Source: a virus (Duplodnaviria; Heunggongvirae; Uroviricota; Caudoviricetes). Taken from it: 64,000 nt of DNA. Under the pieces are notes generated by a model that had not been told where the DNA came from, searched no databases, and saw only the letters and a list, made by a program, of their open reading frames with translations. Both the position numbers and the translations under genes were made by a program. Location of the stretch: IMG/VR virus record IMGVR_UViG_3300021256_000061; one strand, given 5' to 3'. Positions 3,251 to 33,799 of this stretch are shown here, one piece after another (position 1 is the first letter of the stretch; each line of letters starts with the position of its first letter).

Positions 3251-3257
3251 GACTCTG

Positions 3258-3641: not shown

Positions 3642-3690
3642 ATCTATGTGTTTTAGTTGTTTCCTTTATAGTAGCAAAGTTCGTGCCAAA

Positions 3691-3885: not shown

Positions 3886-3892
3886 AACTCTA

Positions 3893-4348: not shown

Positions 4349-4451
4349 AATGTGTTGTGTTTCGATTACATCTTTGTATAATCAAAGACCGTGCCAAACT
4401 TTCTCGGAGTGACACGGTCTTTGCCGTTTTTAGCATTTTTAACGCAAGGCG

Positions 4452-4580: not shown

Positions 4581-4654
4581 ATTGTTATTGTTTGATTACG
4601 ATATAGGATATAACAAAGACCGTGCCAAACCTTTCGGAACAACACGAAAATTTG

Positions 4655-4909
4655 TTAGATTTCGTGAGTACAACTTTTGAAATGTTCTAAATCGTAAGAA
4701 GAATCGGTGATATCTTCAGCCGTAGCATAGAACGCATCTTCATCATCTTGAAAAAGTCCTGCGTTTTCAGCCATCTGTACGGCATCGGCTTCTTCAGTGG
4801 CATCGCACTTGACGGCAAATGAATAGCCGTGTCTGCCTGCAACATTGATTGAAAAAATCCTCTTACTTTTCATCGGTAACTTCTTTTGATTTATACACTC
4901 CCCAGCCAT
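4655..4909 (-). CDS. hypothetical protein (84 aa)
   Basis: ORF track; ATG verified. Confidence 0.45.
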   Translation of the reverse strand: MAGECINQKKLPMKSKRIFSINVAGRHGYSFAVKCDATEEADAVQMAENAGLFQDDEDAFYATAEDITDSSYDLEHFKSCTHEI

Positions 4910-5039
4910 CGGCTACATACCAATCGTGGGCTTTCTGCTCTGCATCGTCTTGCGATTCGGCTTCAATGGTGACAACTCTTGTCCTATTCTCGTTGTAGGG
5001 TAATCCCAAAACGAAAAGGGTTACTTCGTAGGTTTTCAT
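4863..5039 (-). CDS. small protein (58 aa, MKTYEVTLFVLGLPYNENRTRVVTIEAESQDDAEQKAHDWYVADGWGVYKSKEVTDEK)
   Basis: Below ORF-track length cut-off; ATG preceded by conserved leader aaagtaatagagtt; overlaps start of downstream gene in another frame. Confidence 0.3.
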   Translation of the reverse strand: MKTYEVTLFVLGLPYNENRTRVVTIEAESQDDAEQKAHDWYVADGWGVYKSKEVTDEK

Positions 5040-5046
5040 AACTCTA

Positions 5047-5211
5047 TTACTTTTTATCAGTTATCCAATTATGGCTGATGGTAAGATTAAGGATAGTGAT
5101 TGAAAATCCCCTATCAATCGTTCCGTATTCAGTTTCGCTCTTGTGCCAATAGATAGTTAAGAGAGCGAATTTAAGTTCACACTTAAAAGGGTTTGTGAAA
5201 TATACATACAT
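5047..5211 (-). CDS. small protein (54 aa; trimmed from 95-aa ORF to internal Met MYVYFTNPF...)
   Basis: Upstream gene ends at 5246; internal ATG at 5209-5211 preceded by conserved leader aaagtagtagagtt. Confidence 0.35.
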   Translation of the reverse strand: MYVYFTNPFKCELKFALLTIYWHKSETEYGTIDRGFSITILNLTISHNWITDKK

Positions 5212-5245
5212 AACTCTACTACTTTTAATGATGAAATGGAGGGGG

Positions 5246-5674
5246 TTATTCCTCCTCCAAATCATCAAAGGTTTCGTCTGCTTTGAGAACTCTGCCATTG
5301 TTTTCTTCATCGGCATATTCCACGATGTCCTCAAGCATAGTGAGCAGGTAGTTCATTTGACTTGCCTCAAAGAGGTCGGTTTCATCCCACTCTGCGAACT
5401 CGTAGTCATCGGTGTCCTTCATTTCAAGGATAAGACTGCGAGAGCCATCGCTATTCTTTTTGATTGTGAGGGTGTCCACATAGAGTGCCCTACCGTAACC
5501 ATCGTCATCGCAGGCAAAGAACAAACACCTATCGGTGTAGTCATTCGCCCAATACTCATAGAGATTGACGGAAGTGATTTTTCGGGAGTCAAGCAGGTCG
5601 AAGATTGCTCGGAGGATTTCTTGGCGCACAAAATCAAGAGCGCGTGCAAATAGGGGAGTTTCTTTAACTACCAT
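5246..5674 (-). CDS. acidic protein (142 aa), candidate DNA mimic
   Basis: ORF; C-terminal D/E-rich; promoter motif at about 5713-5728. Confidence 0.5.
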   Translation of the reverse strand: MVVKETPLFARALDFVRQEILRAIFDLLDSRKITSVNLYEYWANDYTDRCLFFACDDDGYGRALYVDTLTIKKNSDGSRSLILEMKDTDDYEFAEWDETDLFEASQMNYLLTMLEDIVEYADEENNGRVLKADETFDDLEEE

Positions 5675-5728
5675 ATCAGTTGTTGTTTATTGGTTTACGA
5701 CTATACTACTTCAAAGACCGTGCCACGA

Positions 5729-6253
5729 TTAGAGGAACCGCAGTCGCAGAGCAACAATTTCACCCTTTGAGTTGTATCCTGCGTAGAGGTCATAAGCACC
5801 GTCACCAAGTCCACTACTTGCTACTGCTCCGACAATCTTCTTGTTGCTTTTGACCATACCGCAGTTGTGCTTTTTGTCATTGAGGGTAATATTGCAGACA
5901 TCTTGATACCACTGCTCGGATTCGGGGGTGTCAATGTTCGGGTGATACTTGTCATAGTTTTCCCTTTCAAAGATACCACACTGACCGCTATCTACACCGC
6001 ACCAACCGATAAGGCTTGTTGCTTTTTTCTTGGGGCAGGATTCGTGATTGATTGTGAGTTCTACAACTCTTTCACCCCACCACTCGTCAATTACGCCATA
6101 CTTGGCTTTGGCGGTGTAAGTCCCCTCTTTTAACTGAACCCCACGATTGTGACCGTTGATAGATTCGTAGCAGGGGTCGGAAACAATAACCTTGCCATTG
6201 GCAGGCTTGAAATTTCCAAGTACCGTTTGCGTTACCGTAATTCTCATATTCAT
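5729..6253 (-). CDS. hypothetical protein (174 aa, Cys-rich)
   Basis: ORF; promoter motif at about 6283-6298. Confidence 0.5.
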   Translation of the reverse strand: MNMRITVTQTVLGNFKPANGKVIVSDPCYESINGHNRGVQLKEGTYTAKAKYGVIDEWWGERVVELTINHESCPKKKATSLIGWCGVDSGQCGIFERENYDKYHPNIDTPESEQWYQDVCNITLNDKKHNCGMVKSNKKIVGAVASSGLGDGAYDLYAGYNSKGEIVALRLRFL

Positions 6254-6301
6254 TGTGTTTGTTGGTTTACACGATTACTTAATCAAAGACCGTACCAAAC
6301 C

Positions 6302-6736
6302 TTACAGATAATTTTCCAAACCTGCAAGAATTGAATAGATTGTTGCGGAACGCAGGACACAATCATCGTAGATGCTGGAGAAGTTTCCGAGGTTGGATAG
6401 TGCCTTGTTGATTTCTTCCAAATCCTTTCCCTCAAAATCATAGAGGTATTCAAACCAATACTTGTTCTCGTACTCGTAGTTATCCACATTGTCCTTTGTG
6501 AAAAGGAATACCTCACCATCGTGCTCGCGTAGCCCATAGATAGTAACATCTTCTATCTCTCCGCCATAGTCATTGAAAGCAACAAGCCGAGGTTTCTCAC
6601 TCGTGGGGAGTGTGGGTATGAATCCACCTGCATCGCGGATAATTCCTGCAAGGGTGTCTATTGAAGTATCACGAACTGACTTAAGAAAGTCAAACGCAGT
6701 GCGTACCTTACCGATAAGTGTGTTATTCGTTTCCAT
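6302..6736 (-). CDS. hypothetical protein (144 aa)
   Basis: ORF. Confidence 0.5.
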   Translation of the reverse strand: METNNTLIGKVRTAFDFLKSVRDTSIDTLAGIIRDAGGFIPTLPTSEKPRLVAFNDYGGEIEDVTIYGLREHDGEVFLFTKDNVDNYEYENKYWFEYLYDFEGKDLEEINKALSNLGNFSSIYDDCVLRSATIYSILAGLENYL

Positions 6737-6737
6737 A

Positions 6738-6950
6738 TTACTTTGAGGTTTTGTTGATAACTCGGTTAATTCTTGAACGGAACTCCTGCTCGCTTACTTC
6801 GTCAATGTTATCCATTGTGGAAATGCTATTGCAGATGAAAAACCTTACATCGCTGGGGTTGCTCTCGTCAATCCAATAACGAGTTTCGGAATTGGTGTTT
6901 TCGCAAATTTCGTTTGCTTGCCCTGCAAGGGTATGAATATCTTGTACCAT
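6738..6950 (-). CDS. hypothetical protein (70 aa)
   Basis: ORF; tightly packed with the upstream gene. Confidence 0.4.
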   Translation of the reverse strand: MVQDIHTLAGQANEICENTNSETRYWIDESNPSDVRFFICNSISTMDNIDEVSEQEFRSRINRVINKTSK

Positions 6951-6952
6951 AA

Positions 6953-7111
6953 CTATTCCTCCTCCACGGTCGCATTAAAGGTAGCACCTTTGAGTGTCAT
7001 ACCGTAATCCTCGCTATCGGAATATTCAATGGCAGTTGCTATTTCACGCAGGGCATCTGCAACAAACCCCTCTTTTGCATTGAGAGTGATTGTGAGTTTT
7101 ACTTCTTCCAT
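6953..7111 (-). CDS. small acidic protein (52 aa, MEEVKLTITLNAKEGFVADALREIATAIEYSDSEDYGMTLKGATFNATVEEE)
   Basis: Below ORF-track cut-off; ATG 7109-7111 complement; promoter motif 7148-7162 about 40 nt upstream. Confidence 0.35.
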   Translation of the reverse strand: MEEVKLTITLNAKEGFVADALREIATAIEYSDSEDYGMTLKGATFNATVEEE

Positions 7112-7147
7112 AATTATTGTTGTTTTAACTTGTTTACTTTTTTATAA

Positions 7148-7162
7148 ACAAAGACCGTGCCA
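7148..7162 (-). promoter_or_regulatory. sigma-54-type -24/-12 motif copy
   Basis: acaaagaccgtgcca; followed by the 18-bp hairpin motif tactcaaaagagtacctaa at 7167-7185. Confidence 0.45.
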
Positions 7163-7181
7163 CGATTACTCAAAAGAGTAC

Positions 7182-7475
7182 CTAATCGACATCTTCACAC
7201 CAATCGTCATCGTGCCATTCCACGAAAACTTTGTCATAGAGCAATTCGCTGAAAGTGGGGTTGAACATCCTATCATAAGCGGTGCGCTGGGGTTTCTTTT
7301 TTACAATTGCTCCCTCGCTTACGTTTCCGTTCACATAGCCTTTGGTAAAACCGCGCTCCAGCCTTTCGGGGTGAGCCTGATTGTAATCGTGGTAATACCC
7401 CTTCCTGTGCCTATCTTTCTTGTGGGTTTTATTGTATTCTTTGTAATACCCAGGGCGATGTCTATCCTTTGCCAT
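7182..7475 (-). CDS. basic His/Tyr-rich small protein (97 aa)
   Basis: ORF; ATG verified; GGGGGAGA...TCTCCCCC stem-loop upstream at 7497-7570. Confidence 0.45.
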   Translation of the reverse strand: MAKDRHRPGYYKEYNKTHKKDRHRKGYYHDYNQAHPERLERGFTKGYVNGNVSEGAIVKKKPQRTAYDRMFNPTFSELLYDKVFVEWHDDDWCEDVD

Positions 7476-7578
7476 ACCTCTATTACTTAAAAGAAAAAGG
7501 GGGAGAAAGCAAGCGAAAGAAAAAATTCACCGACAAAATAAAGGATGGCAGTCGGCATATCTCCCCCTTATGAATAGT

Positions 7579-8016
7579 TTAGTAGTCAAAGGTCGCAAAC
7601 CTTTGTTTCATAGGAAAAACATCGGTGTCCTCAACATCTCCCTTGCCACCGAGCAACCTATCAATGTTGTTTGCAAGGTCTGCCCAGTCGGAATAGTTGT
7701 TTGGGCCACCGTGATAGTCCTTTGCGTGTTCAGCAGTCCTTATGAGGATATGATGCAGGACTGGGGTTGAGCGATTGAAAAGGTTGTTAGAGTGTAAAAG
7801 GTACACATACTTTCCGTTGCGTTCAAACATAGCACTTTCGTCATAGTGCATAGGGTCAAACCGCACGAGGGTTGCTCCCATATCTTCTGCCATCTTCTTC
7901 AAGATGCGTTTGAAGGCTCGCTCAAAGCCCTTGTATTCGTTACTGCGGACACAGCCCCAATCTTCGAGGGGCTTACCGTGCCACTTGCGATAAAAGTCTA
8001 TTCTTGCTCTTTCCAT
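7579..8016 (-). CDS. hypothetical protein (145 aa)
   Basis: ORF; promoter motif at about 8053-8068. Confidence 0.5.
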   Translation of the reverse strand: MERARIDFYRKWHGKPLEDWGCVRSNEYKGFERAFKRILKKMAEDMGATLVRFDPMHYDESAMFERNGKYVYLLHSNNLFNRSTPVLHHILIRTAEHAKDYHGGPNNYSDWADLANNIDRLLGGKGDVEDTDVFPMKQRFATFDY

Positions 8017-8047
8017 ATCAGTTGTTGTTTTGTGTTTACACGATTAC

Positions 8048-8329
8048 TTATTGCAAAGACCGTGCCACACAAGTCTTTATCTCCTGCAAAAGTTCATCAA
8101 GACTTGCTACCTCTTTCCGATTAGTTATCCAAGAACTACGAGGGTCGCTACACATCATACGTTCATTAAGTATGATATATGCCTTTATGTTCTCAAGAGG
8201 GTTGATATAGGTCGCAATCCCCTTGCACTCTGCCATATTGGAACTCCACATACTCTCGGTGAACCCCATTTCTTTAAGGGCATTTATAACCTTTTGTGCT
8301 TCCGCGCTGTTTGATACCTTAATGTACAT
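8048..8329 (-). CDS. hypothetical protein (93 aa)
   Basis: ORF; promoter motif at about 8363-8378. Confidence 0.5.
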   Translation of the reverse strand: MYIKVSNSAEAQKVINALKEMGFTESMWSSNMAECKGIATYINPLENIKAYIILNERMMCSDPRSSWITNRKEVASLDELLQEIKTCVARSLQ

Positions 8330-8430
8330 ATTGCTTGCTTTAAGCGTTTATACCTTTACTCTTGCAAAGACCGTGCCGTTATGTAATAAAGTTATGGGTG
8401 ATAGATAAATTTCCACCACCCTTAACTTCG

Positions 8431-8886
8431 TTACTTTTCTTCTACCATTGCTTTCTTGTATTCCTTTGCCAATTCCAGCAAGGTGTTGATAACATCGGTG
8501 TCGCTTTCCCAATCTCCGTCCAGCACCTCGCACCGAGCATTGTCGCAAAGCCACTTTATAGAGTCTTTCTCTTTGGGGTTGTAGTTGGGGTTCTTGTAGT
8601 AAATGAAACTCTCAAACCAATTGTTGTCATCAATGTAGAGCCGTCCATCTTCAAGTGCTTTTTCGTATTCCTCTCCACCATTATGGAAAAGGTCTATGAG
8701 TTCTTGTGGCATCTGCGAAGATGCTTTGTAAACTACATCGTTGAAAACCACACGAACATACCCCTCAACCCTTATCTCCACCAGCAAGTCGCTGGTTTTA
8801 AGTGTAGCAACAACCTGCCCACTATCAAGTTCCATTGAATCATTGATACCAATAAGGAAATCTGCAATTGTGAAATTGTACTTCAT
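8431..8886 (-). CDS. hypothetical protein (151 aa)
   Basis: ORF; promoter motif at about 8923-8938. Confidence 0.5.
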   Translation of the reverse strand: MKYNFTIADFLIGINDSMELDSGQVVATLKTSDLLVEIRVEGYVRVVFNDVVYKASSQMPQELIDLFHNGGEEYEKALEDGRLYIDDNNWFESFIYYKNPNYNPKEKDSIKWLCDNARCEVLDGDWESDTDVINTLLELAKEYKKAMVEEK

Positions 8887-9024
8887 ATTGTCGTGCTTTA
8901 TGTTAACTCACTTACTTATTTGCAAAGACCATACCAAACTTAATTCGGTTACTTTTTATTTTGGTGTTGAAAAGGGGTGACCATAGGATAGCCACCCCCA
9001 AAACAACACTAAAATGATATGGAA

Positions 9025-9495
9025 TTAACAATATTCGCCATCGTCAATTACTCTTGCGATTTCGTCCCTATCTTCAAGGGGAAGTCCGAAGAAACTGACA
9101 TAATTGAGGTCACACTCGTCTATTTCTTTGACAGGTTTACTGCTGTTGCTATCATCGGTAGTTATGACCTTTATATCCTCGTTGCCCTCGTCAAGCATAA
9201 AGCCAACTGCGGTTGAGCCATCGGAAAGGCAGAACGGATTTTCTATATCAGCGATTTCTCCGTCCTCAAATGTTGATTTGACATCGAAGTAGGTCTGCTC
9301 GCAATATCTTGCTCTTTCTTCATCGCTGGGCTTGTTGTCGGCCTTGTTGAGCCAATCTTCATCTACGAAGTAGGCGGAACTGCCGAAATCTTCTATGCCC
9401 TTATCATCGTTGATAAGATAGGAGTTTTGTCTAAACCCTGCTTTGGTCATAAGGTCTTGGCTCTCGGGCCAAGTTACTACTACATACTTTCCCAT
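9025..9495 (-). CDS. acidic protein (156 aa), candidate DNA mimic
   Basis: ORF; D/E-rich; promoter motif at about 9528-9543. Confidence 0.5.
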   Translation of the reverse strand: MGKYVVVTWPESQDLMTKAGFRQNSYLINDDKGIEDFGSSAYFVDEDWLNKADNKPSDEERARYCEQTYFDVKSTFEDGEIADIENPFCLSDGSTAVGFMLDEGNEDIKVITTDDSNSSKPVKEIDECDLNYVSFFGLPLEDRDEIARVIDDGEYC

Positions 9496-9604
9496 TGTTG
9501 TTGTGTTTATTGGTTTATACTTTTACCTATGCAAAGACTATGCCATTGTTTCTTAAAGATAGGGGGAGCATTGGGTTTTCACTCCCCCTTTTGATATGGA
9601 AAGA

Positions 9605-10333
9605 CTACATTGCAAGGTTGTAAATTTTCTCGCCCTCTGCGTTTCTTTTGAACTCGGAGTCTAACTTATAGTTCTGCTCATAGACCTTATTGAGAAGTTT
9701 TCCGCACTCGCTTTCGGGCATCTGCATATACTTCTTTGCATCTTCCACAAGGGAACGGACTGCATCTTCGGCATTGTGCCGTTTCTGCTTGTATTCATCA
9801 TCGCCATAGCGATTGTAAGGTCGGTCATTGAGAACGAGAGTGTTTATGCGTTTGTAGAGGGGCATCACATAGGGGCGGTTCTCATTGTACTTCTTCCTTG
9901 CTTTGATAAGGTCGGAAGAAAGCAGGGGGACAATGGCTTTGATAGCCTTGCGGAGTTCATCTGCGGAAATGTTGAGGGGAGAATGTACGCACTCGCGCCC
10001 CCAAGAACCACCGACATCTTCCCATTTGGCATTGATGGTATATCCACCGACAAGATAGCGAGCAGGTACATATTCAGTTCCATCGGTGCTATCTCCCTGC
10101 CAATAGACCTTTGCATAAAGTTGGTTGGTTTTGGAAAGGTCAAAACCCTCTATGGAGTGATTCCAATTGAAGTTATCGTGCACCACATCGTGTGAGAAAT
10201 TGATTTCGGTGCGGTATTCATCTACGAACCCAAATTTCTTCATAATTTCGGGGATTACTTCAAGGGACTTGTAGATGTTGTTTCCGTTAAGGATTTCGCG
10301 ATAATACTTCGCAGTTTTTCTTACTTGTGCCAT
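9605..10333 (-). CDS. hypothetical protein (242 aa)
   Basis: ORF; upstream sense sequence TGGCACACCTTTTGCT (sigma-54-like) at about 10360-10378. Confidence 0.55.
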   Translation of the reverse strand: MAQVRKTAKYYREILNGNNIYKSLEVIPEIMKKFGFVDEYRTEINFSHDVVHDNFNWNHSIEGFDLSKTNQLYAKVYWQGDSTDGTEYVPARYLVGGYTINAKWEDVGGSWGRECVHSPLNISADELRKAIKAIVPLLSSDLIKARKKYNENRPYVMPLYKRINTLVLNDRPYNRYGDDEYKQKRHNAEDAVRSLVEDAKKYMQMPESECGKLLNKVYEQNYKLDSEFKRNAEGEKIYNLAM

Positions 10334-10435
10334 AGTGTGTTATGTTTTGTTGTTTACTTGTCTATAAGCAAAAGGTGTGCCACAATTTAGACAAAAAGGT
10401 ATTGGGGGTGAATTTTTTTTATCACCCCCTGCCTT

Positions 10436-11227
10436 TTAGTATATCTTCTGCTCATACTTGACTTTACCCGTAGGGGTTTTGATGGTTACTATGAAGTATC
10501 TGCGTTTCTCGCCCTCGCACTCCAATTCGTGATACTCGGAATACTTCCTATCAATTTCATCTATGTAATCTTCTTCGCCCCTCTTGATGGTTAGGATGTC
10601 TTTGGAAGTTCTTGCGTTGCGCAATTCTTCAAGAACCCTTGCACACTTCTTGGGTTTGTTGTCAAGGAAAATCCTTTCGCCATACTCGTCCCATAGGCGA
10701 CCTCTCTTGCCACCCATATTCGCAGTGAAAAACTCGTAGTTGGAAATCTGCTTGTTGCCCCAATCAAACTTACCATACTTGTTGATGAAGTTCATAAGGG
10801 AGTTGTATTCCTTGCAAGGTGCATCAGCAAGGCAAACCTTTGTTATAACATTGACATAGGTGGTGTTGTAAAGTCCGCCAAAACAATGCGTCTGCTTTTC
10901 AAAAACGAAGTTCAGTCCGCCCCAACCTTTGACTTTCTTCTGCTCGTTCAGTAGATTCGCGACCTTGCTGAAAGTGCTACTGACTTCGGATATCGTTGAC
11001 AAATTCCGAACAATCGTCTTGCCATTAACCACAATGTTATAGGTGGTTTCGCCCTTTGTATAAGTCCCATTAGAGGGATTAAATTTAGAGGTGCATACAT
11101 CATCATAGTAAAGTTCCACCATCTGCGAGTGTCTATCCCAAGCGGTGGTCACCTTGCCCTTGTTGTACTTCTTCGCATCTGCGAGTATGGCCTTGATTGT
11201 CTTGAAAATAAGTTGTGCGTTATCCAT
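10436..11227 (-). CDS. hypothetical protein (263 aa; start moved to internal Met MDNAQLIF...)
   Basis: Promoter motif (sense TGGCACACTTCTTGCT) lies inside the longer ORF at 11250-11270, so ATG at 11225-11227 is preferred. Confidence 0.5.
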   Translation of the reverse strand: MDNAQLIFKTIKAILADAKKYNKGKVTTAWDRHSQMVELYYDDVCTSKFNPSNGTYTKGETTYNIVVNGKTIVRNLSTISEVSSTFSKVANLLNEQKKVKGWGGLNFVFEKQTHCFGGLYNTTYVNVITKVCLADAPCKEYNSLMNFINKYGKFDWGNKQISNYEFFTANMGGKRGRLWDEYGERIFLDNKPKKCARVLEELRNARTSKDILTIKRGEEDYIDEIDRKYSEYHELECEGEKRRYFIVTIKTPTGKVKYEQKIY

Positions 11228-11308
11228 AATGTTGTTTTTTGGTTTATACCTTTCTATAAGCAAGAAGTGTGCCAACACGCTAAAATTGTCAGCACACTCC
11301 TCACCTTT

Positions 11309-11497
11309 TTAGTTGATAATTTCAAAATCATCGCACTGAGGATTGACCGCAAGACCGCCCCATGTTCCGTGTAACTGGCCGATGCTATCTATGTGTTCAA
11401 TAACACCCTCTTTGCCATTGTACCTCTGCGCTTGCCAATCAGTGCCATCGCAATCGTCCAAGTGGATAATGCGGATTTTATCGCCTACTTTTGCCAT
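11309..11497 (-). CDS. hypothetical protein (62 aa)
   Basis: ORF. Confidence 0.4.
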   Translation of the reverse strand: MAKVGDKIRIIHLDDCDGTDWQAQRYNGKEGVIEHIDSIGQLHGTWGGLAVNPQCDDFEIIN

Positions 11498-11499
11498 AG

Positions 11500-11772
11500 T
11501 TAAAAGAATTTAATGAAGTAATCGTTGGAAGTAATCTCGCCATCTTCAAGAGCGAAGTTGAACTCTGCTTGGAACTCTCGCAGGGTGTAAACATCTGCCA
11601 CCTCATCGTAGGAACTATCTATAATGTCCTTGCATTCTTGCTCGGTCATTTCCTCATCTACATAGAGAGCAAAATCATTACACTTTTCCTCGTCATTGGA
11701 GAACTTGCTCATAATGTATGCCCTCGTTTCATCTACGGGGAGCACATAAACTTTTGTTTCCTTTTTTGCCAT
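11500..11772 (-). CDS. acidic protein (90 aa)
   Basis: ORF; promoter motif at about 11798-11815. Confidence 0.45.
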   Translation of the reverse strand: MAKKETKVYVLPVDETRAYIMSKFSNDEEKCNDFALYVDEEMTEQECKDIIDSSYDEVADVYTLREFQAEFNFALEDGEITSNDYFIKFF

Positions 11773-11897
11773 ATTCGTTTACTTTTTTGGCTACACTTCA
11801 CCTATATGCAAATTCTATGCCAAACTGAAAAAAGAAAGGGAGTTAACCTTACGATTTTCTCCCTTTCCACGCTAAACACTATATATGGAACACAACT

Positions 11898-12440
11898 TTA
11901 TTTCATTTCTAACACATCTTCTTGATATGCCCTTGCATCCCTCGCAAAGAAGATGATGGTGTTCAAGTCCATATCATCTGCGACGTGCATAAGGTAATCG
12001 TAGGCATAGTCCTCGTAGTTTGCCAGCACTATGGATTTATCATCCCCTGCGCCTACATACCCTTTCGCTATCATTTCATCCATATCCCTATGCATAAGAG
12101 CCTTGAGGATGATGGACAAGGTCTTTTTGCTATTTTTCCACAACTCGTTGATGATGTCCACCAATTTGGGGTTGTGGGAGTTGGTGTCATCCATTATGAT
12201 TTTGCCAGCCTCTCTTGCCTTTATGAGATGGAGAGCACGGAGTTCTGCGTTCTCTATCTCCGCCTGCCTGCAAAGGCAACAATTCGCGCAGTATTGCTGG
12301 TCAGGTTCATCGCTTGGACGGCACATAGAGCAGGTAACAATCCGTTTTCCGCAACTGGGGCAGGTCTGCACCATCAGTTCAGCATCCAGCTCAACTTCTT
12401 CCCCACAATGGGGGCATACTTCGTAACATTTATTTTCCAT
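11898..12440 (-). CDS. double zinc-ribbon protein (about 180 aa; start at internal Met MENKCYEV)
   Basis: CPHCGEEVELDAELMVQTCPSCGKRIVTCSMC motif; promoter motif (sense TGGCATGATTATTGCC) at 12458-12482 lies inside the longer ORF. Confidence 0.5.
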   Translation of the reverse strand: MENKCYEVCPHCGEEVELDAELMVQTCPSCGKRIVTCSMCRPSDEPDQQYCANCCLCRQAEIENAELRALHLIKAREAGKIIMDDTNSHNPKLVDIINELWKNSKKTLSIILKALMHRDMDEMIAKGYVGAGDDKSIVLANYEDYAYDYLMHVADDMDLNTIIFFARDARAYQEDVLEMK

Positions 12441-12586
12441 ATCCGTATGTTTTTGATTTGCTTGTCTATAAGGCAATAATCATGCCAATCTTTATTCGGT
12501 TACTTTTCTTATTACTCAAAAGAGTACCTTTAAGCCAATGGCTTTGCAGATGCGCCTTGCAATCTTATAACAATCCTCTTTGAGAA

Positions 12587-12958
12587 TTATATTGGGGTTG
12601 CGGTGTTCCCTACGAAAAGTGTTGGCTTTTTGGGTAATCCCAGGGACTCCGCTATCTTTTCCGAACTTTCAAGTCTTGCTTGGATTTCAAGGGGGCAATT
12701 GACACAACACTTGCTATCAATATCCACTGCCCTACACATAGAGCAAGTAACAATCCTCGCTCCGCAACTCGGGCAAGTTTGTATTTTCAGTTCGGCATCT
12801 AACTCCACCTCCTCTCCGCACTGGGGACATACCTCATAGGTCTTATCCTTTGTTGCTTTCAGTTCGGGAAAAATGGTGTCAAGAAACTCGTTAGTCCCTT
12901 TGCCATAGTAGGACTTGGCTAACTGCAAACCCCTTTTGTATTTTTCTTTGTAGCCCAT
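12587..12958 (-). CDS. zinc-ribbon protein (123 aa), paralog of 11898..12440
   Basis: CPQCGEEVELDAELKIQTCPSCGARIVTCSMC is near-identical to the neighbouring gene. Confidence 0.5.
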   Translation of the reverse strand: MGYKEKYKRGLQLAKSYYGKGTNEFLDTIFPELKATKDKTYEVCPQCGEEVELDAELKIQTCPSCGARIVTCSMCRAVDIDSKCCVNCPLEIQARLESSEKIAESLGLPKKPTLFVGNTATPI

Positions 12959-12985
12959 AATTCGCCTACTTTATTCGTTGTGATT

Positions 12986-13408
12986 TTAGTAGGTGTAAAC
13001 CCAAACATAGTCATCTTTGTCCACGCACTCAAGCACCTTTTCCAGCCACGAATTAAGTTCATAGAGTGCATCAACTCTCATTTCCTTAAAAATGCCACGA
13101 GTAATAAGTTTTAGTGCCATTGGCGAACTTTCACAATCTTTAATTGCGTTGAGGGTTTCCTCGTGCAGTTTTTCAATGCACTCTTTCTTTACCGACACAT
13201 CTCGTGTCCTGCCATTTTCGGTATATAAACCAAAGTATTTAGCGAGTTTGTTAGTTGTTACAGGCTTTCCCTCACTTTGGGTATAGTGACCACCCAAAGT
13301 AGAATACTCCCCTAAAAACGTACCGCCATTGAGGATAGTTTCCCTTTCTTCGATAGCAACATCTTCCATTGCTACGTTTAATTTTCTAAATTCAATGCTT
13401 AGTGACAT
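12986..13408 (-). CDS. hypothetical protein (about 140 aa; start at internal Met MSLSIEF)
   Basis: Promoter motif 13452-13468 lies inside the 179-aa ORF; ATG at 13406-13408 verified. Confidence 0.45.
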   Translation of the reverse strand: MSLSIEFRKLNVAMEDVAIEERETILNGGTFLGEYSTLGGHYTQSEGKPVTTNKLAKYFGLYTENGRTRDVSVKKECIEKLHEETLNAIKDCESSPMALKLITRGIFKEMRVDALYELNSWLEKVLECVDKDDYVWVYTY

Positions 13409-13494
13409 ATTGTTAATTGTGTTTATTGGTTTAACTTTCTTTTGCTTTCTATGTATCAACAATCGTGCCAAACAATCTGCACTCATTTGAGTAC

Positions 13495-13737
13495 CTAATT
13501 TGATATATTGTCGGTATTGAGCCACCTAAAGGTCAGTGCATCTACGCAAGAAGACATATCCCTTACAAGCCCCATCATAGCATCTGCCTCTTCATCGGTG
13601 TAGCCGTTGTTGGTAAACACCTCGCCATCAGCACACCACCCCTCAAAACCCTCAGCCCCATTGTCTGCCAAAACATTGTTGGAGTACATATTGATAACCT
13701 GCTCGGTTATCGCCTTTATCATTTCATTGTGTGTCAT
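13495..13737 (-). CDS. hypothetical protein (80 aa)
   Basis: ORF. Confidence 0.4.
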   Translation of the reverse strand: MTHNEMIKAITEQVINMYSNNVLADNGAEGFEGWCADGEVFTNNGYTDEEADAMMGLVRDMSSCVDALTFRWLNTDNISN

Positions 13738-13744
13738 AACTCGG

Positions 13745-14029
13745 TTAGTTTATAGGATAATAGATTTCATCTTCGTAGTCCCTTGTGTTGTTGGGGTTCT
13801 CGAACTTGCTGAACCGCTCCTCGGCAAGGCACATAGGGTAATCACTGACACCATCGGTGCAAACCTCTTTGCCATCTTTGAGGTCAAAGTAAATGTGGGC
13901 ATACCTCTCCATCTCGCTACCCTCGGTGTTACGCATCGCATCTTCGTAAAAGTCCAACGCGTTCCTGCGTTTTTCCCATTTCTCAATGGAGTTGTAGCAA
14001 CATACTACAATGTAAGTTTTTTCTTTCAT
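13745..14029 (-). CDS. hypothetical protein (94 aa)
   Basis: ORF; promoter motif at about 14126-14142. Confidence 0.45.
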   Translation of the reverse strand: MKEKTYIVVCCYNSIEKWEKRRNALDFYEDAMRNTEGSEMERYAHIYFDLKDGKEVCTDGVSDYPMCLAEERFSKFENPNNTRDYEDEIYYPIN

Positions 14030-14180
14030 ATCAATATCATTTTAGTTGTGTCCATATAAAAGGGGGTGCAAGACCGAGAGTGAACTAACACCCCCCAAAA
14101 AATTGTTTCAACTCATAGGGAGTATAGGCAAAGACCGTGCCAAGTTTTAATTTGATTAGTTAATATGCCAAAGAAAAAAG

Positions 14181-16504: not shown

Positions 16505-16665
16505 TATCTTATTTGGCTTTATTATCTTGTGCTTTTCTATACTTTACTATCTTTCTTGTGCTTTATCATAGTCATAGTTCTTTGCTTACTTTATCTTGTA
16601 TTTTATTATACTTTATCATCCTTTTCTTGCTTTATCTTGTATTTTATTATGGCTTATTATTTCTC
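16505..16665. repeat. iteron-like degenerate direct repeats (ctttatcttgtattttattat x2 plus CTTGTGCTTT variants)
   Basis: Read directly; no ORF; between DUF932 and helicase genes. Confidence 0.6.
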
Positions 16666-16914
16666 ACAAAATACGCATAGACAAGCGCACTTGTGCAAGC
16701 ACACCAATATGCGTGCGCTCCCCCTTAATCCCCCTCGCCTTTCGGCTTGGCACGGTTATTGTTCAAGCCATCTGCGAAGTTTTTCATAGTTCGCACTGGG
16801 ATAGCCGTGATGGTCGCACCCATTGTGCTTCGTTTAGGGGAAAAAAGGGGTAGCCGTGAGGTCATACCCTTTTTTCTTGTTTCCCCATCCCCCCAAATAA
16901 CTTGATTACTTTTT

Positions 16915-18545: not shown

Positions 18546-19057
18546 TACCCAAACGCAACACTCACGCATACCCCCCTTATATCCCCCCACAAACGGAGTT
18601 TGTGGCTCTCCCCCTTTTACAATCTCTATGTAGAGAAATCCCCAAATAGGCCGAATTTGGCCAATTCCAGGCCCGTAGAGCCATTTATAACCAAAAGATG
18701 ATAAATTATATGTCCGCAACCCTTTAAGGCCCTTAAATGGCTTTTATTCGCTTTATGAAAAAATTTAGCACATTTTGTCAGTTTTGTGAAAGAATATCAA
18801 ACAATGTCAGTATATGATAGTGAAAGCAATTTGAAACACTGCAAACCCTTGAAACCCTTATTCCTACGGAATAACAAAAAAAAGTTAAAAAAGTTTTCAA
18901 GTTATTGCAATAGTGGCATTGTTTTTGTTGATAGGCATTTCAGTTCTTTGACAATACGATTTTTCAGCATATAGGGCGAAAGGTCTATCCGCTTGCTACC
19001 TTTCGGCTAACCCTATGGGTAAACGCAAGCATAATCTCTCTTATCCAAACAAACGAT

Positions 19058-19702
19058 ATGAAGAAGATTACAAAGGTCGCTGACCTTATCAGCATTGTCC
19101 GCACTGCAAAGGCAGGTGGTCAGTTCGCTACCATTTCGGGCGAGCATAACACAAAGTTCAACGCCTTTCCCAACGAGGAATACTGCAAAGCAAAGGGCAT
19201 CACCCTCGCAAGCGGTAAGGGGAGCAAAGCACTGAACGAACCCTACCGCTTTGGTGGTGAAGATTTCAAGTTCCGCTTTAAGGTGGCTTTCCACTTTGGG
19301 CAAGACTATGACCGCACCCTCGCCAAACTCGGTTTGGAACGCAGCGAGAACGGAGCAAACAAGCCGATAGACCACTTTGGCGGTATCGCAATCGGCTACC
19401 CCACCACCAACAATATTTGCCTTGTCTATATGGAGGGCAACTACAAAGGCGAGGGGTACTACCTTGACGGAAAAAAGGTAGAGGACAACGAAACCCTTGA
19501 ATACATTAAGGGGTACAAGTCCACAAGCAACTCCACGCAAGCGGTAGAATACCGCACTCTCGGTGTCCGCAATATCCGCACCCTTGCGGTCGCAGGCGAG
19601 GTCTATGAGGTGGAAATCAACGAAATTTCCCCAAAAGACTACGATGCAGTCTGCACCCTCTTTGGGGTGGCTCGCGAACCCATAGAAACAAAGGTCGGTT
19701 AA
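19058..19702 (+). CDS. hypothetical protein (214 aa)
   Basis: ORF; GC-richer codon usage like the helicase gene. Confidence 0.5.
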   Translation: MKKITKVADLISIVRTAKAGGQFATISGEHNTKFNAFPNEEYCKAKGITLASGKGSKALNEPYRFGGEDFKFRFKVAFHFGQDYDRTLAKLGLERSENGANKPIDHFGGIAIGYPTTNNICLVYMEGNYKGEGYYLDGKKVEDNETLEYIKGYKSTSNSTQAVEYRTLGVRNIRTLAVAGEVYEVEINEISPKDYDAVCTLFGVAREPIETKVG

Positions 19703-20024
19703 TCCGCCTTTCCACGAAGATTAAACGCACTCCAATCGGGGTGCGTTTTTTCGTTTCTACCTATGATGCGAGGGCAACGCAAATAAAGGCTCTCTAACAC
19801 GTTTATAACCCCACAAAGGTATAACTATGCCACTTTTCCCCATAAGGGCAAAATAGGTGGCTTTCCGCCCCATTTATGGGCATAGTGCTGGGGTATATGG
19901 GGGACACCCCCTCCCCCGTAAACCCCCTCGCCCCCGCCCCGCAGGGGCATACCCCAAAAGGCGCCCCACAGTTGCTCGCGAAAAATTTTTCCCAGAAAAT
20001 CGACTTTTATTTAGGGCCCACCCC

Positions 20025-20165
20025 CTTCTCTGAAAAAATGCCTTTCCAAAAAATTTTTTACCCCAAAATTTTCGAGTTTTTTCCAGGGGGGTACCCCTTC
20101 TGTTTTAAAAATGCCTTTTCAAAAAATTTTTTACCCTAAAAATCCGCAAAAAACTCCAAAATGCT
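20025..20165. repeat. about 75-bp tandem direct repeat x2 (aaaaatgcctttccaaaaaattttttacccc ...) next to a C/G-tract region 19905-19945
   Basis: Read directly; poly-C runs give G4 potential on the minus strand; non-coding. Confidence 0.7.
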
Positions 20166-20202
20166 TTTCTTTTGTCTATTTATATGAAAATCTTATATTT
20201 TC

Positions 20203-21321
20203 ATGCGTCTTGACGAGGTGGCATATTCTCCAGACATCGTATGGATTACATACGGTTGGGACCACTTTGACCCGTCCAAGTTCGAGAGGGCGCGGGTTGG
20301 GGACGAGAGGTATGACTACACGAACAAGCCTTGCGGGGGCCTATGGGCGTGTCCTGTGAACAGCGAGTGGGGCTGGAGCCATTGGTGTCGTACGGAGGAC
20401 TTCAGGGCAGACTCTCTCAAGAAGTCGTTTTGTTTCAGGTTAAAACCGAAGGCCAAGATATATGTCATCGACAATGCCGAGGACCTGGGGAAGATATCGT
20501 TGCATGTAAGCGGTCAATATACCAGCAGGTTGGTTTTCAACATTGATTATGGGCGACTGATAGAGAGTGGGTATGACGGGATTTACCTGACGGATAACGG
20601 TCTGTTCTCTTGCCGTGAGGGTGTGGACATTGAGGGGAATAAATTTGTCCCGCACGCGAACTGGGCCACGATACCGTTAATCCAGGGGATGAGCAGCTGG
20701 GACGTCGAATCTATTTGTGTCTTTAACCCTGACGTAATTATTCCGATAGAGAAGGAAGCGGAACCGCAGGGTATGAAAAGTATCACAATCAGCGAATCCG
20801 ATATAAGGACGATGGTTAGGAAAATCATACGGGAGATTAGTGAAGGCCAGTTCAATGTCAGGGGTGTATATCATGTTTCGGGCAATGCCTTTGATGAATT
20901 TAAGGAGGGGAACTTCCCTTGTTTCTTTTTTTCCAACAAGCCCATACGAATAAACGGCAGCAAGTATACATATCTTTGCAATCTATCTTTGCATAATCCT
21001 GTTAAGTTCAGCTGTCAAATGTCTTGGAGTTATTCTTTATGGCTATATCTTTCGGACAGTGACGGGCGCCTGATACCCGAGGAGGAATTTACCAGAGAGA
21101 AATATGACGGGTATTTGGGATGTCCTTATGAATTCTGGGAAAGAGTTTATTATGATGATTTCGCATACTCTGTTGACGATGCGCCTGGTTTGTTAAAAAG
21201 TTTGAACCTGGGTTATGACGGCATGATTATAAAGGGTGTGTCCGAAGGTGACACTGGAATTGACGTGGATGACTATGTTGTCTTTGATGCTGGCCAGATA
21301 CAAATTGTAAGGAGATATTAA
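20203..21321 (+). CDS. motif-family protein (372 aa) with C-terminal domain shared with 28506..29043
   Basis: Contains the 22-aa motif ITISESDIRTMVRKIIREISEG and a GVYHVSGNAFDEF...GCPYEFWERVYYDD domain paralogous to the 28.5-kb gene. Confidence 0.55.
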   Translation: MRLDEVAYSPDIVWITYGWDHFDPSKFERARVGDERYDYTNKPCGGLWACPVNSEWGWSHWCRTEDFRADSLKKSFCFRLKPKAKIYVIDNAEDLGKISLHVSGQYTSRLVFNIDYGRLIESGYDGIYLTDNGLFSCREGVDIEGNKFVPHANWATIPLIQGMSSWDVESICVFNPDVIIPIEKEAEPQGMKSITISESDIRTMVRKIIREISEGQFNVRGVYHVSGNAFDEFKEGNFPCFFFSNKPIRINGSKYTYLCNLSLHNPVKFSCQMSWSYSLWLYLSDSDGRLIPEEEFTREKYDGYLGCPYEFWERVYYDDFAYSVDDAPGLLKSLNLGYDGMIIKGVSEGDTGIDVDDYVVFDAGQIQIVRRY

Positions 21322-21353
21322 ATTCTGTTATTTACAGATTTTTCTTCCTGTTG

Positions 21354-21366
21354 GACTATTTATAAA
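21354..21366 (+). promoter_or_regulatory. conserved upstream motif GACTATTTATAAA (class-2 promoter-like element), representative of 9 copies
   Basis: AACTATTTAT(A/T) found 18-60 nt upstream of ATGs at 21385, 27593, 29091, 30437, 36262, 37958, 41900, 49577, 60932. Confidence 0.45.
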
Positions 21367-21384
21367 TTGAACACCGATAAGAAT

Positions 21385-21975
21385 ATGAAAAAGAATACAA
21401 TAAAGATTAATGAAAACACCCTCAGGCAGATTGTTGCTGAGAGCGTGAAGAGGGTATTAAACGAAAGAAGGGGCAGAAATCCGTATGGCTATATGGACTT
21501 TGACCAGGACGCCTATGATAAGTGGGAAAACGAAACACATATACCTCAAGAGGTCATGGAAATGGTGAATCATGTGGCCGAGAAAATCGGTATGGGGTCC
21601 GTGGAGGAAACCGTCGTACATTTGACTAACAGGTGGGGCGAGACAATTGGTTATGGAAAAGGTATCAGCTTAACGCATTGTACGAGCTCGTATGCTGATG
21701 GACCATCCACCGACTATTCGTCCGTATTTGCAAAATGGTGTAAGGGCTTGGGTTTTGAAGAATGTGACTCCCACGGCGATAACGGTATGGATTCTGCGAC
21801 AAACTGGCACGACACCTATTGGACTCACGAATTTGTCTATGAGGGCACCGAAATTTATAATGACGACCTCGAACATTTCGTCCCTTATGATGAGAATGAC
21901 GAAGACGCTTATGCTGAATATTTGGATTATGAGGATGAAAGCATGTATGACGATGACGATGATTACGGATATTAA
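21385..21975 (+). CDS. motif-family protein with acidic C-terminus (196 aa from ATG; ORF track uses TTG 21367)
   Basis: N-terminal IKINENTLRQIVAESVKRVLNE motif; C-terminal DDDDDYGY. Confidence 0.5.
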   Translation: MKKNTIKINENTLRQIVAESVKRVLNERRGRNPYGYMDFDQDAYDKWENETHIPQEVMEMVNHVAEKIGMGSVEETVVHLTNRWGETIGYGKGISLTHCTSSYADGPSTDYSSVFAKWCKGLGFEECDSHGDNGMDSATNWHDTYWTHEFVYEGTEIYNDDLEHFVPYDENDEDAYAEYLDYEDESMYDDDDDYGY

Positions 21976-22002
21976 TAAGGAAACCAAATAAATAATGAAA
22001 TG

Positions 22003-25789: not shown

Positions 25790-27037
25790 TTATAAAAACC
25801 TATGAGTTTCAATTTCTTGCTTCATCCTATCACTACTTTTTAGTGCCTTGTTTCCAAGTCTGTCATCCATAGTTGGATAGTCCGCAAGCGTAAATTCGGG
25901 AGTACGGCTCCCTATTATTCTTAAACCCTCTTCAAGTATATTCAACGCAGCATTGTAATCTCGTTCAATAATTTCTCCACAAACAGGACAAACCCATTGT
26001 CTGTCACTTAATTTAAGTTCCTTATTGATATAACCACAATTATGACATGTCTTACTTGAAGGATAGAATCTGTCAACATAAACTATATCCCTGCCATACC
26101 ACAATGCTTTATATTCAAGCATCCTTCTGAATTCTCCGAAGTTCATTTCAGATATGGATTCAGCAAGCTTATGATTCTTAACCATTCCCTTCACATTCAA
26201 ATCTTCCATCACTATGACTTGGTTATCATCAAGCAATGTGTTTGATACTTCGTGAAGATAGTTAAGTTTCTGGTTTCTTATCTTTTCATTCAACTTAGCA
26301 AGTTTGATTCTTGCTTTATTTCTATTGTTGCTTCCTTTCTGTTTTCTTGAAAGTTGTCTTTGTAATTTCTTTAGCCTATTCACTTCAGATTTCTTAAAGT
26401 GAAGATTACTGAAGCATTCACCTTCTGATGTTACAACAAAATCCTTAATGCCTAAATCAATTCCAACAGCACTATTTGTTGCTTTTAATTTCTTCCTGAA
26501 ATCACCATCAACAAGAATTGAAAGGTAATATTGTCCAGAACAGTTTCGTGATAGTGTGGCTGAACGGATTCCGTCTTTATTCTTCACAAGATAATTCACA
26601 TATTCATCGGAGCATTTAAACTTAATGTTGTGGATGTTGGCGAGTGATAATTTATGTGTTGAATAATCATTCCTTTTTGATATCGCTTCCAAAGGAAACC
26701 TGCATGATTGTTTATTGTCATGTTTAGATTTATACTTCGGAAATCCTTTATGCTCATTAAAGAAATGAGAATAAGCATCCAATAAATCACGAATAGATTG
26801 TTTCAATACTTTAGTATTCTGTTCCTGCAACCACGAATATTTCTCATCTTTTGTAAGTTCATTATGAAAGAAATGCCCAAGAGTTGTCAGGTTTTCGGAA
26901 GTTTCGTTTTCTTTATATGTGTTTATTTTCTTTTCAAGACATTGATTATAGACAAACCTATAACACCCAAGCAATTTATTAATTTGTATTGCTTGAGTCT
27001 TATTTGGATATAATCTTATTTTCAATGCCTTTAACAT
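25790..27037 (-). CDS. tnpB: TnpB (IS200/IS605/IS607 OrfB family RNA-guided nuclease), 415 aa
   Basis: N-terminal RLYPNKTQ...FVYNQ; RuvC-I GIDLG, RuvC-II VMEDLN, zinc finger CHNCG...CPVCG, Ruv[13 protein letters not shown]; all catalytic residues present. Confidence 0.85.
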
Positions 27038-27402: not shown

Positions 27403-27592
27403 ATATAAATAGTTTAAACAATGTAAAAATACGAAAAAACTTTCAGAAAAAGAAATAATTTTTCGTATTTTTTAATAAAATTTCACTTAACAGTTAAGTA
27501 CCCCAATTAAATGAGTATTTTATGTTTTTATCATGTGGCAAATATACAAATGTTTTTAATAGAATAAAACTATTTATTTTTATAAAATAACC

Positions 27593-32902: not shown

Positions 32903-33799
32903 TTATTTCAGGGCGGCATGTTCGTGTGCAAATTTTCTCAACTTTTTCAGTGCTGTATTTCTAATTTGACGTACGCGCTCCTTGGATATATTGAGTTCAT
33001 CTCCCAATTCTTCCATGGTTAGAGGCCTATCCATTTTCACACCGTATAACCCAGTGATGATTGTTTTTTCGCGCTCATCCAGACAGGGGAGTAGTTTGCT
33101 GAGCATGAAGTTATTTTCTTCTTCGTCAATAACTTTGTTATATTCATTGTAACTTGCAGACTTTTCGTTGTAAGCGGCTGAATTTCCGTATGTTTCTTTG
33201 GAATCATCTCCCGCGGGACTTTCTAGATGCTTGGTATCAACATCGTAGAGGTATGATAGGTCCTTTACCTCGATGCCGTATTCTTCTTTTATAATATCAG
33301 CAATCTCCTCTACTGTGGGTACTCTTCCATTCTGGAGATAAAATCTGTTTTTGATGTGATTAGTTTTAAGGGTTGTCTTTATATTATTGGTACGCCTTAT
33401 TAATCCGTTATTAAGGAGATAAAACGCAATTTCGCGCCTGATATAATGCACGGCGTAGGACAGAAACCTCAATGGTTTTCCATCTTCCCCAGTTCTATAA
33501 CAGTCAAATTTTTCAATTGCCTGCATGAGCCCGAGGTTACCAATTTGAATCAAGTCTTGAAGATTGTCTGACGTGTTAAATCTTTTAGCAACGGCCAAGA
33601 CAAACCTTAGATTTGATTTAATTAGTGTTTCTTTTGCTTCTTCGTCGCCTTCTTTTATGCGTTTACATAGTTCATGCTCTTCTTCGGCGCTAAGGATGTC
33701 ATATTTCCTTATATCCTTAAGATACAAATTTAGTGTCCCAGTATTTTCAGAAAAATAACTGGTTGGATTGGTTACGTCAATAATAGTCTTATTTCCCAT
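32903..33799 (-). CDS. sigma-70-family sigma factor (298 aa, no region 1.1)
   Basis: Region 2 LIQIGNLGLMQAIEKFD / FLSYAVHYIRREI; region 4.2 LTMEELGDELNISKERVRQIRNTALKKLR. Confidence 0.8.
   Translation of the reverse strand: MGNKTIIDVTNPTSYFSENTGTLNLYLKDIRKYDILSAEEEHELCKRIKEGDEEAKETLIKSNLRFVLAVAKRFNTSDNLQDLIQIGNLGLMQAIEKFDCYRTGEDGKPLRFLSYAVHYIRREIAFYLLNNGLIRRTNNIKTTLKTNHIKNRFYLQNGRVPTVEEIADIIKEEYGIEVKDLSYLYDVDTKHLESPAGDDSKETYGNSAAYNEKSASYNEYNKVIDEEENNFMLSKLLPCLDEREKTIITGLYGVKMDRPLTMEELGDELNISKERVRQIRNTALKKLRKFAHEHAALK

Follow-up and report, generated by a model that had tools for sequence, protein, structure and literature searches.

The stretch analysed here, called the window throughout, comprises 64,000 nucleotides of the IMG/VR virus record IMGVR_UViG_3300021256_000061 (Caudoviricetes); it is phage-like and part of a large genome. 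In this window, a gap of 500 bp (19703-20202) separates two plus-strand genes, 19058-19702 and 20203-21321. The first codes for a protein of 214 amino acids (the 214-aa protein) without Pfam or PHROG family, for which a structure search returned nothing beyond weak matches to barrels and uncharacterised viral proteins, and the second for a protein of 372 amino acids with a faint ART-PolyVal match in some relatives. The gap contains a module of about 300 bp (window positions of about 19842-20141) that recurs in at least 16 distinct metagenomic relatives, always at the close of the early genes. We consider it likely that this non-coding DNA has a function in cis and does not represent a terminus of the genome. 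The features found in the gap are as follows.

19723-19755, plus strand: canonical intrinsic terminator of the 214-aa gene, an 11-bp stem (19723-19748) followed by a T run (TTTCGTTTCT), which lies outside the conserved module and marks the end of the early transcript.
19842-19905, plus strand: direct repeats of iteron type, each a G cluster (T)A(T)GGG(G)CA, read from the sequence and aligned in 14 variants (alignment columns of about 30-70).
19890-19926, no strand: imperfect 14-bp inverted repeat GGGGTATATGGGGG / CCCCCGTAAACCCC with the loop CACCCCC, from fold energy against shuffles.
19907-19940, G-quadruplex (G4) motif on the minus strand: C-tract block whose core CCC.CCCCCGTA.ACCCCCTC does not vary among the 14 aligned variants (alignment columns C69-C90).
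19937-19947, no strand: short GC hairpin CCCC-GCA-GGGG; most relatives have a hairpin of variable sequence here.
19967-19975, plus strand: invariant box CACAGTTGC (alignment columns C128-C136), with a single exact copy in the window.
19981-19993, no strand: first A5T5-CCC box (AAAAATTTTTCCC).
20014-20086, plus strand: repeat unit 1, 73 bp, with GGGCCC-ACCCCC, A/T runs and CCAAAAAATTTTTTACCCC; A6T6 at 20048-20059.
20087-20141, plus strand: conserved part of repeat unit 2, with the GGGGGTACCCC palindrome (20087-20097) and CAAAAAATTTTTTACCCT; A6T6 at 20121-20132.
20174-20183, plus strand: GTCTATTTAT, a member of the (A/G)ACTATTTAT class, outside the conserved module.
20183-20205, plus strand: weak A/U stem overlapping the start codon of gene 20203 (-4.8 kcal/mol, z-score -1.6).

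The left part of the module is rich in G and C. The G runs of the array begin at 19846, 19856, 19878, 19890 and 19899, with a cluster spacing of 9-12 bp, and thus form direct repeats phased at about one helical turn, as in iteron origins; the repeats are degenerate and they align in the 14 variants. The C tracts that follow, CCCCCTCCCCC (19907-19917), CCCCC (19923-19927) and CCCCCGCCCC (19931-19940), are present where an earlier note on this DNA had placed them, as are the GGGGGacaCCCCC hairpin (GGGGG-ACA-CCCCC at 19899-19911) and the two repeat units further right. This hairpin falls within the inverted repeat 19890-19926, which could form a hairpin or a cruciform: folding of 19890-19950 gave -37.2 kcal/mol with a z-score of -3.6, and a further fold test gave a z-score of -4.6. 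The TA(Y)GGGG:CCCCGTA pairing was predicted in about 11 of the 14 variants, and in L034 it can be drawn by eye. The inverted CCCCGTA copy of the TA(Y)GGGG heptamer lies inside the invariant C block. The block is a special, invariant variant of the C5-(A/T)-C5 boxes described below, with GTA.A in its middle, and makes up the inverted repeat with the upstream TATGGGGG. The module thereby combines direct repeats with an inverted copy of their heptamer, as is seen in iterons and operators. The G/C block of L039 is partly inverted, with its G runs on the plus strand, and the orientation of the downstream boxes is unchanged.

The right part of the module is dominated by A/T tracts. The full repeat units span about 20014-20086 and 20087-20159, with a G6 tract that begins at 20086 at the palindrome of unit 2. 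Two tandem units are real, with cores (20034-20068 and 20107-20141) that are 94% identical, and only their period had to be corrected, from 75 to 73 bp. Three A5-6T5-6-CCC boxes are located about 70 bp apart, the last two inside the 73-bp units together with the GGGGTACCCC palindrome. The 28-nucleotide repeat core has two copies in the window with 0 expected, and AAAAAATTTTTT occurs at 20048 and 20121 only, compared to 0.12 expected. The region 19976-20141 thus provides the adjacent, A/T-rich and easily unwound DNA that is seen next to the repeats of iteron origins, and A6T6 is found nowhere else in the window. The conserved boxes GGGGTACCCC and AAAAAATTTTTT are partly twofold symmetric.

The distribution of the module was traced by following homologues of the 214-aa protein (54-98% identity) to their contigs, which are uncultivated rumen jumbo-phage contigs of up to 363,676 bp according to sample labels and neighbours. 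The module was found 3' of the gene for the homologue in all the traced contigs except a Lak-like distant group: no module was present downstream of the distant (31%) homologues in the IMG/VR contigs L046-L051 (313-554 kb, GC content of 26-27%). The L046-L051 contigs are of Lak-megaphage size. At least 14 distinct versions of the module were obtained next to homologues with 65-98% protein identity, and the 14 that were aligned share the same order of parts, i.e. G clusters, C block, variable GC hairpin, CACAGTTGC and up to three A5-6T5-6-CCC boxes. The left block showed 0.67-0.95 identity to the window, tracking the neighbouring gene, whereas the 187 nucleotides between gene and module showed 0.40-0.53 identity in the relatives, except for the near-identical L016 (0.97). 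Since the module keeps a high identity next to 187 randomised nucleotides, its conservation reflects selective constraint and not mere relatedness. Conservation ends at about 20137-20141 of the window, where the terminator of a leftward gene abuts in the relatives. Right of the module, the relatives have unrelated sets of genes, mostly leftward, which include leftward HTH_3, GIY-YIG and HNH-like genes and small open reading frames. The block to the left, called here the early block, runs rightward and codes for DUF932, SF1 helicase (UvrD/Dda-like) and the 214-aa protein.

The module does not depend on the 214-aa gene in every genome. It follows a non-homologous gene in L010 and L011, and one unit of about 75 bp, about 80-84% identical, was found in an IMG/VR contig without protein homology over the 11 kb examined. 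The last codons and stop of the gene upstream of the module, AA(A/G)GT(C/T)GGTTA(A/G) (...KVG*), are similar even where the genes are non-homologous (L010:1590-1606, window 19688-19705, L029 at about 8650-8666), and because of this likeness the conserved DNA unit may start inside the 3' end of the upstream gene. Comparison of 19000-22000 with a deposited-phage collection (megablast and blastn) gave no match, and single-protein scans of IMG/VR were negative. A scan of a genome collection with exact patterns gave only chance matches, in high-GC actinobacteria; the C-block and repeat-core patterns had no match in IMG/VR, and a pattern scan of metagenomes gave three real loci and one chance locus. 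Literature searches on rumen jumbo phages and on DUF932 brought up no work relevant to the module. Judged by these comparisons, the module sequence is new to the libraries searched, and its composite architecture matches no described family.

We then considered the G4 potential of the C block. Of canonical G4 motifs (four runs of three or more G, with loops of 1-7 nucleotides), the 64-kb window has a single one, on the minus strand of 19913-19940; it passes the version with at least four G as well, and its G4Hunter score of -2.52 is the extreme value of the window. A G4-capable pattern is retained in 12 of the 14 variants, the other two keeping only three runs, and the minus-strand G4 potential pointed out in the earlier note is thus well founded. 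Shuffling within blocks of 500 nucleotides gave 0.30 ± 0.60 G4 motifs per window, and one such motif per 64 kb is unremarkable by count alone.

The description of this segment as an isolated run of C tracts in an AT-rich genome did not fully hold. The GC content is 32-51% per kb across the window, which is only moderately AT-rich, and related C5-(A/T)-C5 boxes are located in the two other long gaps of the gene block, at 16720 and 18571. The box at 16720 (CTCCCCCTTAATCCCCCTCGCC) matches 19911-19932 at 20 of 22 bases (91%). The family has the form C5-(A/T-rich 5-8)-C5, and the relatives with many sites are L019, L021, L029, L039 and L040. The boxes (e.g. CCCCCTTTATATTCCCCC; in the window at 16718-16739 and 18571-18588) are often followed by a small GC hairpin. 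The long gap of 530 bp upstream of the helicase gene also contains four AT-rich direct repeats of 30-40 nucleotides (CTTTATCTTGTATTTTATTATAC-like, 16509-16660). In the relatives, the long intergenic gaps of the early block have one to five boxes each, which always point the same way as the flanking genes and are often found just after a terminator and upstream of sigma-54-like promoters. The C5 boxes are candidate promoters or operators.

Such boxes suggest a reading in which the module is a small non-coding transcription unit driven by a C5-(A/T)-C5 box, and we consider this reading unlikely. The variant box CCCCCGTAAACCCCC would act as a rightward promoter, the variable GC hairpin as the 5' stem of the RNA and CACAGUUGCU as a conserved, single-stranded functional site, and the transcript would end at the GGGGUACCCC hairpin and a U-rich stretch. 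The presence of gene-oriented boxes in the early-block gaps of all the relatives, often after terminators, is in line with this, as are two boxes located about 30 nucleotides before start codons with no sigma-54-like motif between. The hairpin after the C block varies in sequence yet remains a hairpin, the unit-2 hairpin was flagged as terminator-like and is the sole consensus pairing, and most relatives have no plus-strand gene downstream, so that any rightward transcript would be non-coding. The C5 boxes are, however, putative promoters, the best-conserved A6T6 boxes lie beyond the supposed terminators, and the G/C block is partly inverted in L039. The RNA tests also spoke against it. No part of the window reached the gathering score of an Rfam family (in the region, the best E-value was 0.74, far below that score), and no tRNA or tmRNA was matched. 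RNAalifold found 4 consensus pairs (-2 kcal/mol) in the left half and 6 pairs in the right half, with one double change, which amounts to no consensus fold and almost no covariation, although hairpins do exist in single sequences. A conserved intrinsic terminator in the repeat units was rejected: the unit hairpin (GGGGTACCCC) persists, but the T run after it does not, being replaced by TTGCTCAG or TTCCCCAG in some variants.

A coding reading was rejected as well. No reading frame is conserved in the module, frame and presence being inconsistent between variants, and the long open frames of some variants are due to a sequence poor in stop codons. Constraint on primary-sequence boxes of a DNA site fits better than an RNA, because the boxes are partly palindromic, occur in direct and inverted copies, and tolerate a strand inversion of the G/C part. 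We thus regard the module as probably a protein-bound or structure-forming DNA site.

The alignment also revealed internal recombination. To the left of CACAGTTGC, the window has an identity of 0.95 to L016 and 0.75 to L029, and to the right the values are 0.46 and 0.90, so that a lineage recombination breakpoint lies directly right of the CACAGTTGC box. Three different spacers follow CACAGTTGCT in different lineages, and the number of units ranges from one to about 2.5 among the relatives. With this split identity, the alternative spacers and the varying unit number, the alignment demonstrates a crossover zone. In addition, L045 and L040 are 100% identical on either side of a stretch of exactly 140 bp that is absent from L045 (L045:1680-1900 compared to L040:7040-7400); the missing stretch contains CACAGTTGC, both A/T boxes of that lineage and GGGGTACCCC. 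As the microhomology at the junction is just 3-4 nucleotides, the deletion is a real variant and not a k-mer collapse.

These observations are also those expected if the module were mainly a recombination junction, i.e. a transcription-boundary or regulatory cassette resembling the promoter-early stem-loop (PeSL) cassettes, which would insulate the early block from convergent transcription and offer homology for swaps of cargo modules. The mosaic identity, the 140-bp deletion and the differing unit numbers are consistent with it, and so are the position of the module between convergent transcription units in most relatives, the lower GC content to its right (0.31-0.45, compared to 0.45-0.53 to its left), the related boxes and hairpins in other gaps and the homing-endonuclease-like genes in the adjacent cargo. 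A passive junction, however, would leave CACAGTTGC and CCCCCGTA.ACCCCCTC unexplained, as these are invariant beside randomised non-coding DNA. The 214-aa gene, moreover, already has its own strong terminator, with an equivalent hairpin and T run of different sequence after the upstream gene in every relative, while the unit hairpins are poor terminators, and on the plus strand only. The chance that the module is mainly such a cassette seems to us small.

The earlier note had proposed a packaging site or genome end at this place. Such a function (pac or cos, a physical end of the genome, or a signal that pauses DNA entry, as in T5) could agree with a non-coding segment bearing direct and inverted repeats and palindromes at the end of an early, anti-defence-like block, and several short contigs start or end in or near the module: L003 starts at window position 19919, the ends of L020, L023, L031 and L035 fall within it, and L019 breaks off 79 nucleotides past the upstream gene. 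A check of whether the locus coincides with assembly contig ends turned out against the proposal, as the module is internal in contigs of 46.5, 82, 95.7 and 363.7 kb and the breaks of the short contigs are at differing positions. Scattered breaks are expected here because strains that occur together have the conserved block in common but differ in the DNA beside it. With PHROGs or Pfam, no terminase-like protein was seen among the approximately 40 larger open reading frames scanned, a set that did not include every small one, and the L045 variant looks viable without 140 bp of the module. The packaging or genome-end reading is therefore unsupported, and we hold this whole group of functions to be very unlikely; what stands of the proposal is a selectively conserved non-coding element at a boundary of gene modules.

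For the DNA site itself, a mechanism of replication-origin type is our leading guess, held tentatively, because the module combines direct and inverted repeats with an A/T-tract part and has genes for helicase, SSB and DUF932 nearby; the UvrD/Dda-like helicase gene is beside the module and, in L040, the SSB gene as well. The module closes the rightward early block, driven by sigma-54-like promoters, of an uncultivated rumen jumbo-phage lineage, and most probably acts at the DNA level as the assembly site of a nucleoprotein complex. In the origin reading, recognition would take place in the G/C-rich part, through the TA(Y)GGGG direct repeats phased at 9-12 bp and their inverted CCCCGTA copy, and this part might extrude a hairpin or cruciform and form a G-quadruplex on the minus strand. 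The A/T-tract part, with three A5-6T5-6-CCC boxes of which two lie within the 73-bp units, would be easily bent or melted. As the last conserved sequence before the hypervariable cargo region, the module also serves as a junction for homologous recombination. We infer both the protein binding at the DNA level and the origin function from these features; the partial inversion of the G/C block in L039 also speaks for a DNA structure over a strand-specific RNA.

Several observations weigh against an origin. The main weaknesses are the absence of an identifiable initiator, an uninformative skew and the viable-looking deletion. No initiator gene was identified near the module, the 214-aa protein having no Pfam or PHROG family. 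The cumulative GC-skew minimum of the window is at 20 kb, where the coding-strand skew changes from values between -0.02 and -0.11 in the early plus-strand genes, which have C-rich coding strands, to +0.23 in gene 20203. In relatives whose right-hand genes run leftward, the skew remains negative throughout the module. The skew switch was thus rejected as origin evidence, since it reflects two gene classes and is absent in the relatives; a switch in strand composition independent of gene orientation, as expected of an origin, was not seen. The spacing of the A/T boxes varies between 68 and 83 bp across the variants, hence without strict helical phasing. The right half appears dispensable in at least one genome (L045), which an origin would tolerate only in a phage with several origins, and the membership of the C block in the wider family of gene-oriented C5 boxes points to transcription.

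A dedicated non-B-DNA element marking the end of the sigma-54-like-driven early block, in which a G-quadruplex or cruciform and A-tract bends would make a structure-dependent origin or a DNA-entry pause signal, is a further variant that we judge quite improbable. It would seem to be portable, given the unit of about 75 bp in the IMG/VR contig without protein homology over 11 kb.

The promoters on the two sides of the module belong to different classes, and the junction of gene modules recognised in the earlier note is real in this respect. The genes to the left have sigma-54-like TGGCAC-N5-TTGC promoters, and at gene 20203, on the right, GTCTATTTAT of the (A/G)ACTATTTAT class is the likely promoter; L039 has AACTATTTAT upstream of the homologue of this gene. 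The sigma-54-type -24/-12 motif (TGGCACGGTCTTTGC; TGGCAC-N5-TTGC) precedes most early genes, at 32-37 nucleotides from the ATG, with sites at 600-14150 (minus strand), 15342, 16748 and 16915 (plus strand) and 25762, 32902 and 56492 (minus strand). At up to two mismatches, 94 matches were counted compared to 51 ± 7 expected. A sigma-54 activator domain was not detected in the window, which encodes a sigma-70-family sigma factor (32903-33799), a DnaJ homologue and a DNA methylase in addition to a TnpB gene. Control of early phage genes by -24/-12 promoters is perhaps more unusual than the module itself. Palindromes of the TGACAAAATGTCA type are located 45-60 nucleotides upstream of sigma-54-like promoters in L019 (about 2810) and L040 (about 3900-3960), with a similar one in L052 (about 5250-5290), in the gap that precedes the repeat unit, and are candidate enhancer sites for an activator. 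A sigma-54 promoter around CACAGTTGC itself (GGCAC-N-TTGC) was rejected, as it has the wrong spacing or no GG in several variants including the window.

The (A/G)ACTATTTAT motif is located 15-40 nucleotides upstream of many plus-strand start codons (56 nucleotides at gene 41900) and is probably a phage-specific promoter class. Its sites are at 21354, 27568, 29066, 30409, 36236, 37918, 41840 and 60905 on the plus strand and at 27405-27414 on the minus strand, and the genes of this class are mainly on the plus strand with G-rich coding strands. As to the stem said to enclose the first ATG of gene 20203 (20183-20191 / 20197-20205), its 3' arm does overlap the true start codon at 20203, but the ATG of its 5' arm (20184) is out of frame. 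The stem is weak, with 16 of 200 shuffles folding as well, it was not seen upstream of the homologous gene in relatives, and it is probably incidental.

Other parts of the window were also annotated. Homologues of leftward early genes of the window (1-14000; for example 10436-11278 and 9025-9495) are on the DUF932 strand in L029:1-4200, from which it follows that an early sub-block is inverted between relatives. The TnpB/IS605 OrfB-type gene (25790-27037, minus strand) has HTH_OrfB_IS605, OrfB_IS605 and Cas12f1-like TNB domains, and in the identical contig L001 a MerR/HTH_17 gene comes before it; a link between the module and this gene was rejected, the two being 6 kb apart with no common ends or repeats. 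Two very long plus-strand open reading frames of 1292 and 1182 codons (41900-49542), fibre-like and of PHROG 25468, are full of tandem repeats of 27, 42, 108, 126 and 171 bp, and the 126-bp repeat is 100% identical at 43462-43688. On the minus strand, 51494-56161 and 59084-60688 hold an RNA repair and maintenance set with a tRNA nucleotidyltransferase, a polynucleotide-kinase-like protein, an RNA ligase and a 534-amino-acid protein of PHROG 850 ('RNA-binding protein') with DUF2828 and DUF7788.

Cis-acting sites such as origins, packaging sites and regulatory boundaries are essentially unknown for uncultivated jumbo phages and megaphages. The module is a sharply bounded and testable candidate: it has invariant boxes, it exists in naturally deleted and mosaic forms, and it marks the place where a conserved early block gives way to hypervariable cargo. 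Should it prove to be an origin or an entry signal, it would offer a way into the start of replication or the staging of infection in gut phages of more than 300 kb, and if it is only a junction cassette it documents channelled module exchange in these genomes. The textbook sigma-54-type promoters of the early genes, at a fixed distance from the start codon, are possibly of more interest than the module.

An intergenic repeat-and-hairpin module at a phage gene-block boundary is of a familiar kind. Sequences able to form a G4 or i-motif, such as conserved sequence block II of the mitochondrial origin, resemble the C block in having at least four runs of at least 3-5 G with loops of 1-5 nucleotides, and in conserved sequence block II, as here, the G-rich strand is next to an A/T-rich region. 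Unlike a canonical G4, the structure is only predicted here, and two variants keep three runs; an ordinary inverted repeat made from the same bases, and not the G4, may be the selected feature. The injection stop signal region of T5 is at a fixed distance from the physical end, inside the terminal repeat. The module shares with it the non-coding character and the repeats and palindromes that close the first-expressed gene block, but no end or terminal repeat was shown for the module and there is no sequence similarity.

PeSL cassettes are short conserved intergenic sequences with a promoter-like box and a stem-loop, which are repeated in early regions, flank variable open reading frames and act as shuffling points. 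They were reportedly described in T4-type phages by Arbiol et al. in 2010. The module is like them in that an intergenic box with a hairpin recurs in gene orientation, with variable DNA beside it and recombination. The boxes here are, in contrast, C5-(A/T)-C5 boxes that are putative promoters and not sigma-70 early promoters, and the module has additional elements of its own, CACAGTTGC and the A6T6 units, which are present once at each locus.

Iteron-type replication origins of phages and plasmids include lambda ori and ori/crr of phage P4, crr being two long direct repeats that bear the same box. Unlike these, the module has no identified initiator gene, its repeats are degenerate, it has no DnaA box, its skew is uninformative, its right half is deleted in one natural variant and it has no sequence similarity to described origins. 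It is nevertheless similar to iteron origins in being non-coding and a few hundred bp long, with short repeats phased at about one helical turn, an A/T-tract region and a GC-rich palindrome that adjoin the repeats, and replication-type genes beside it, and its two 73-bp units resemble P4 crr.

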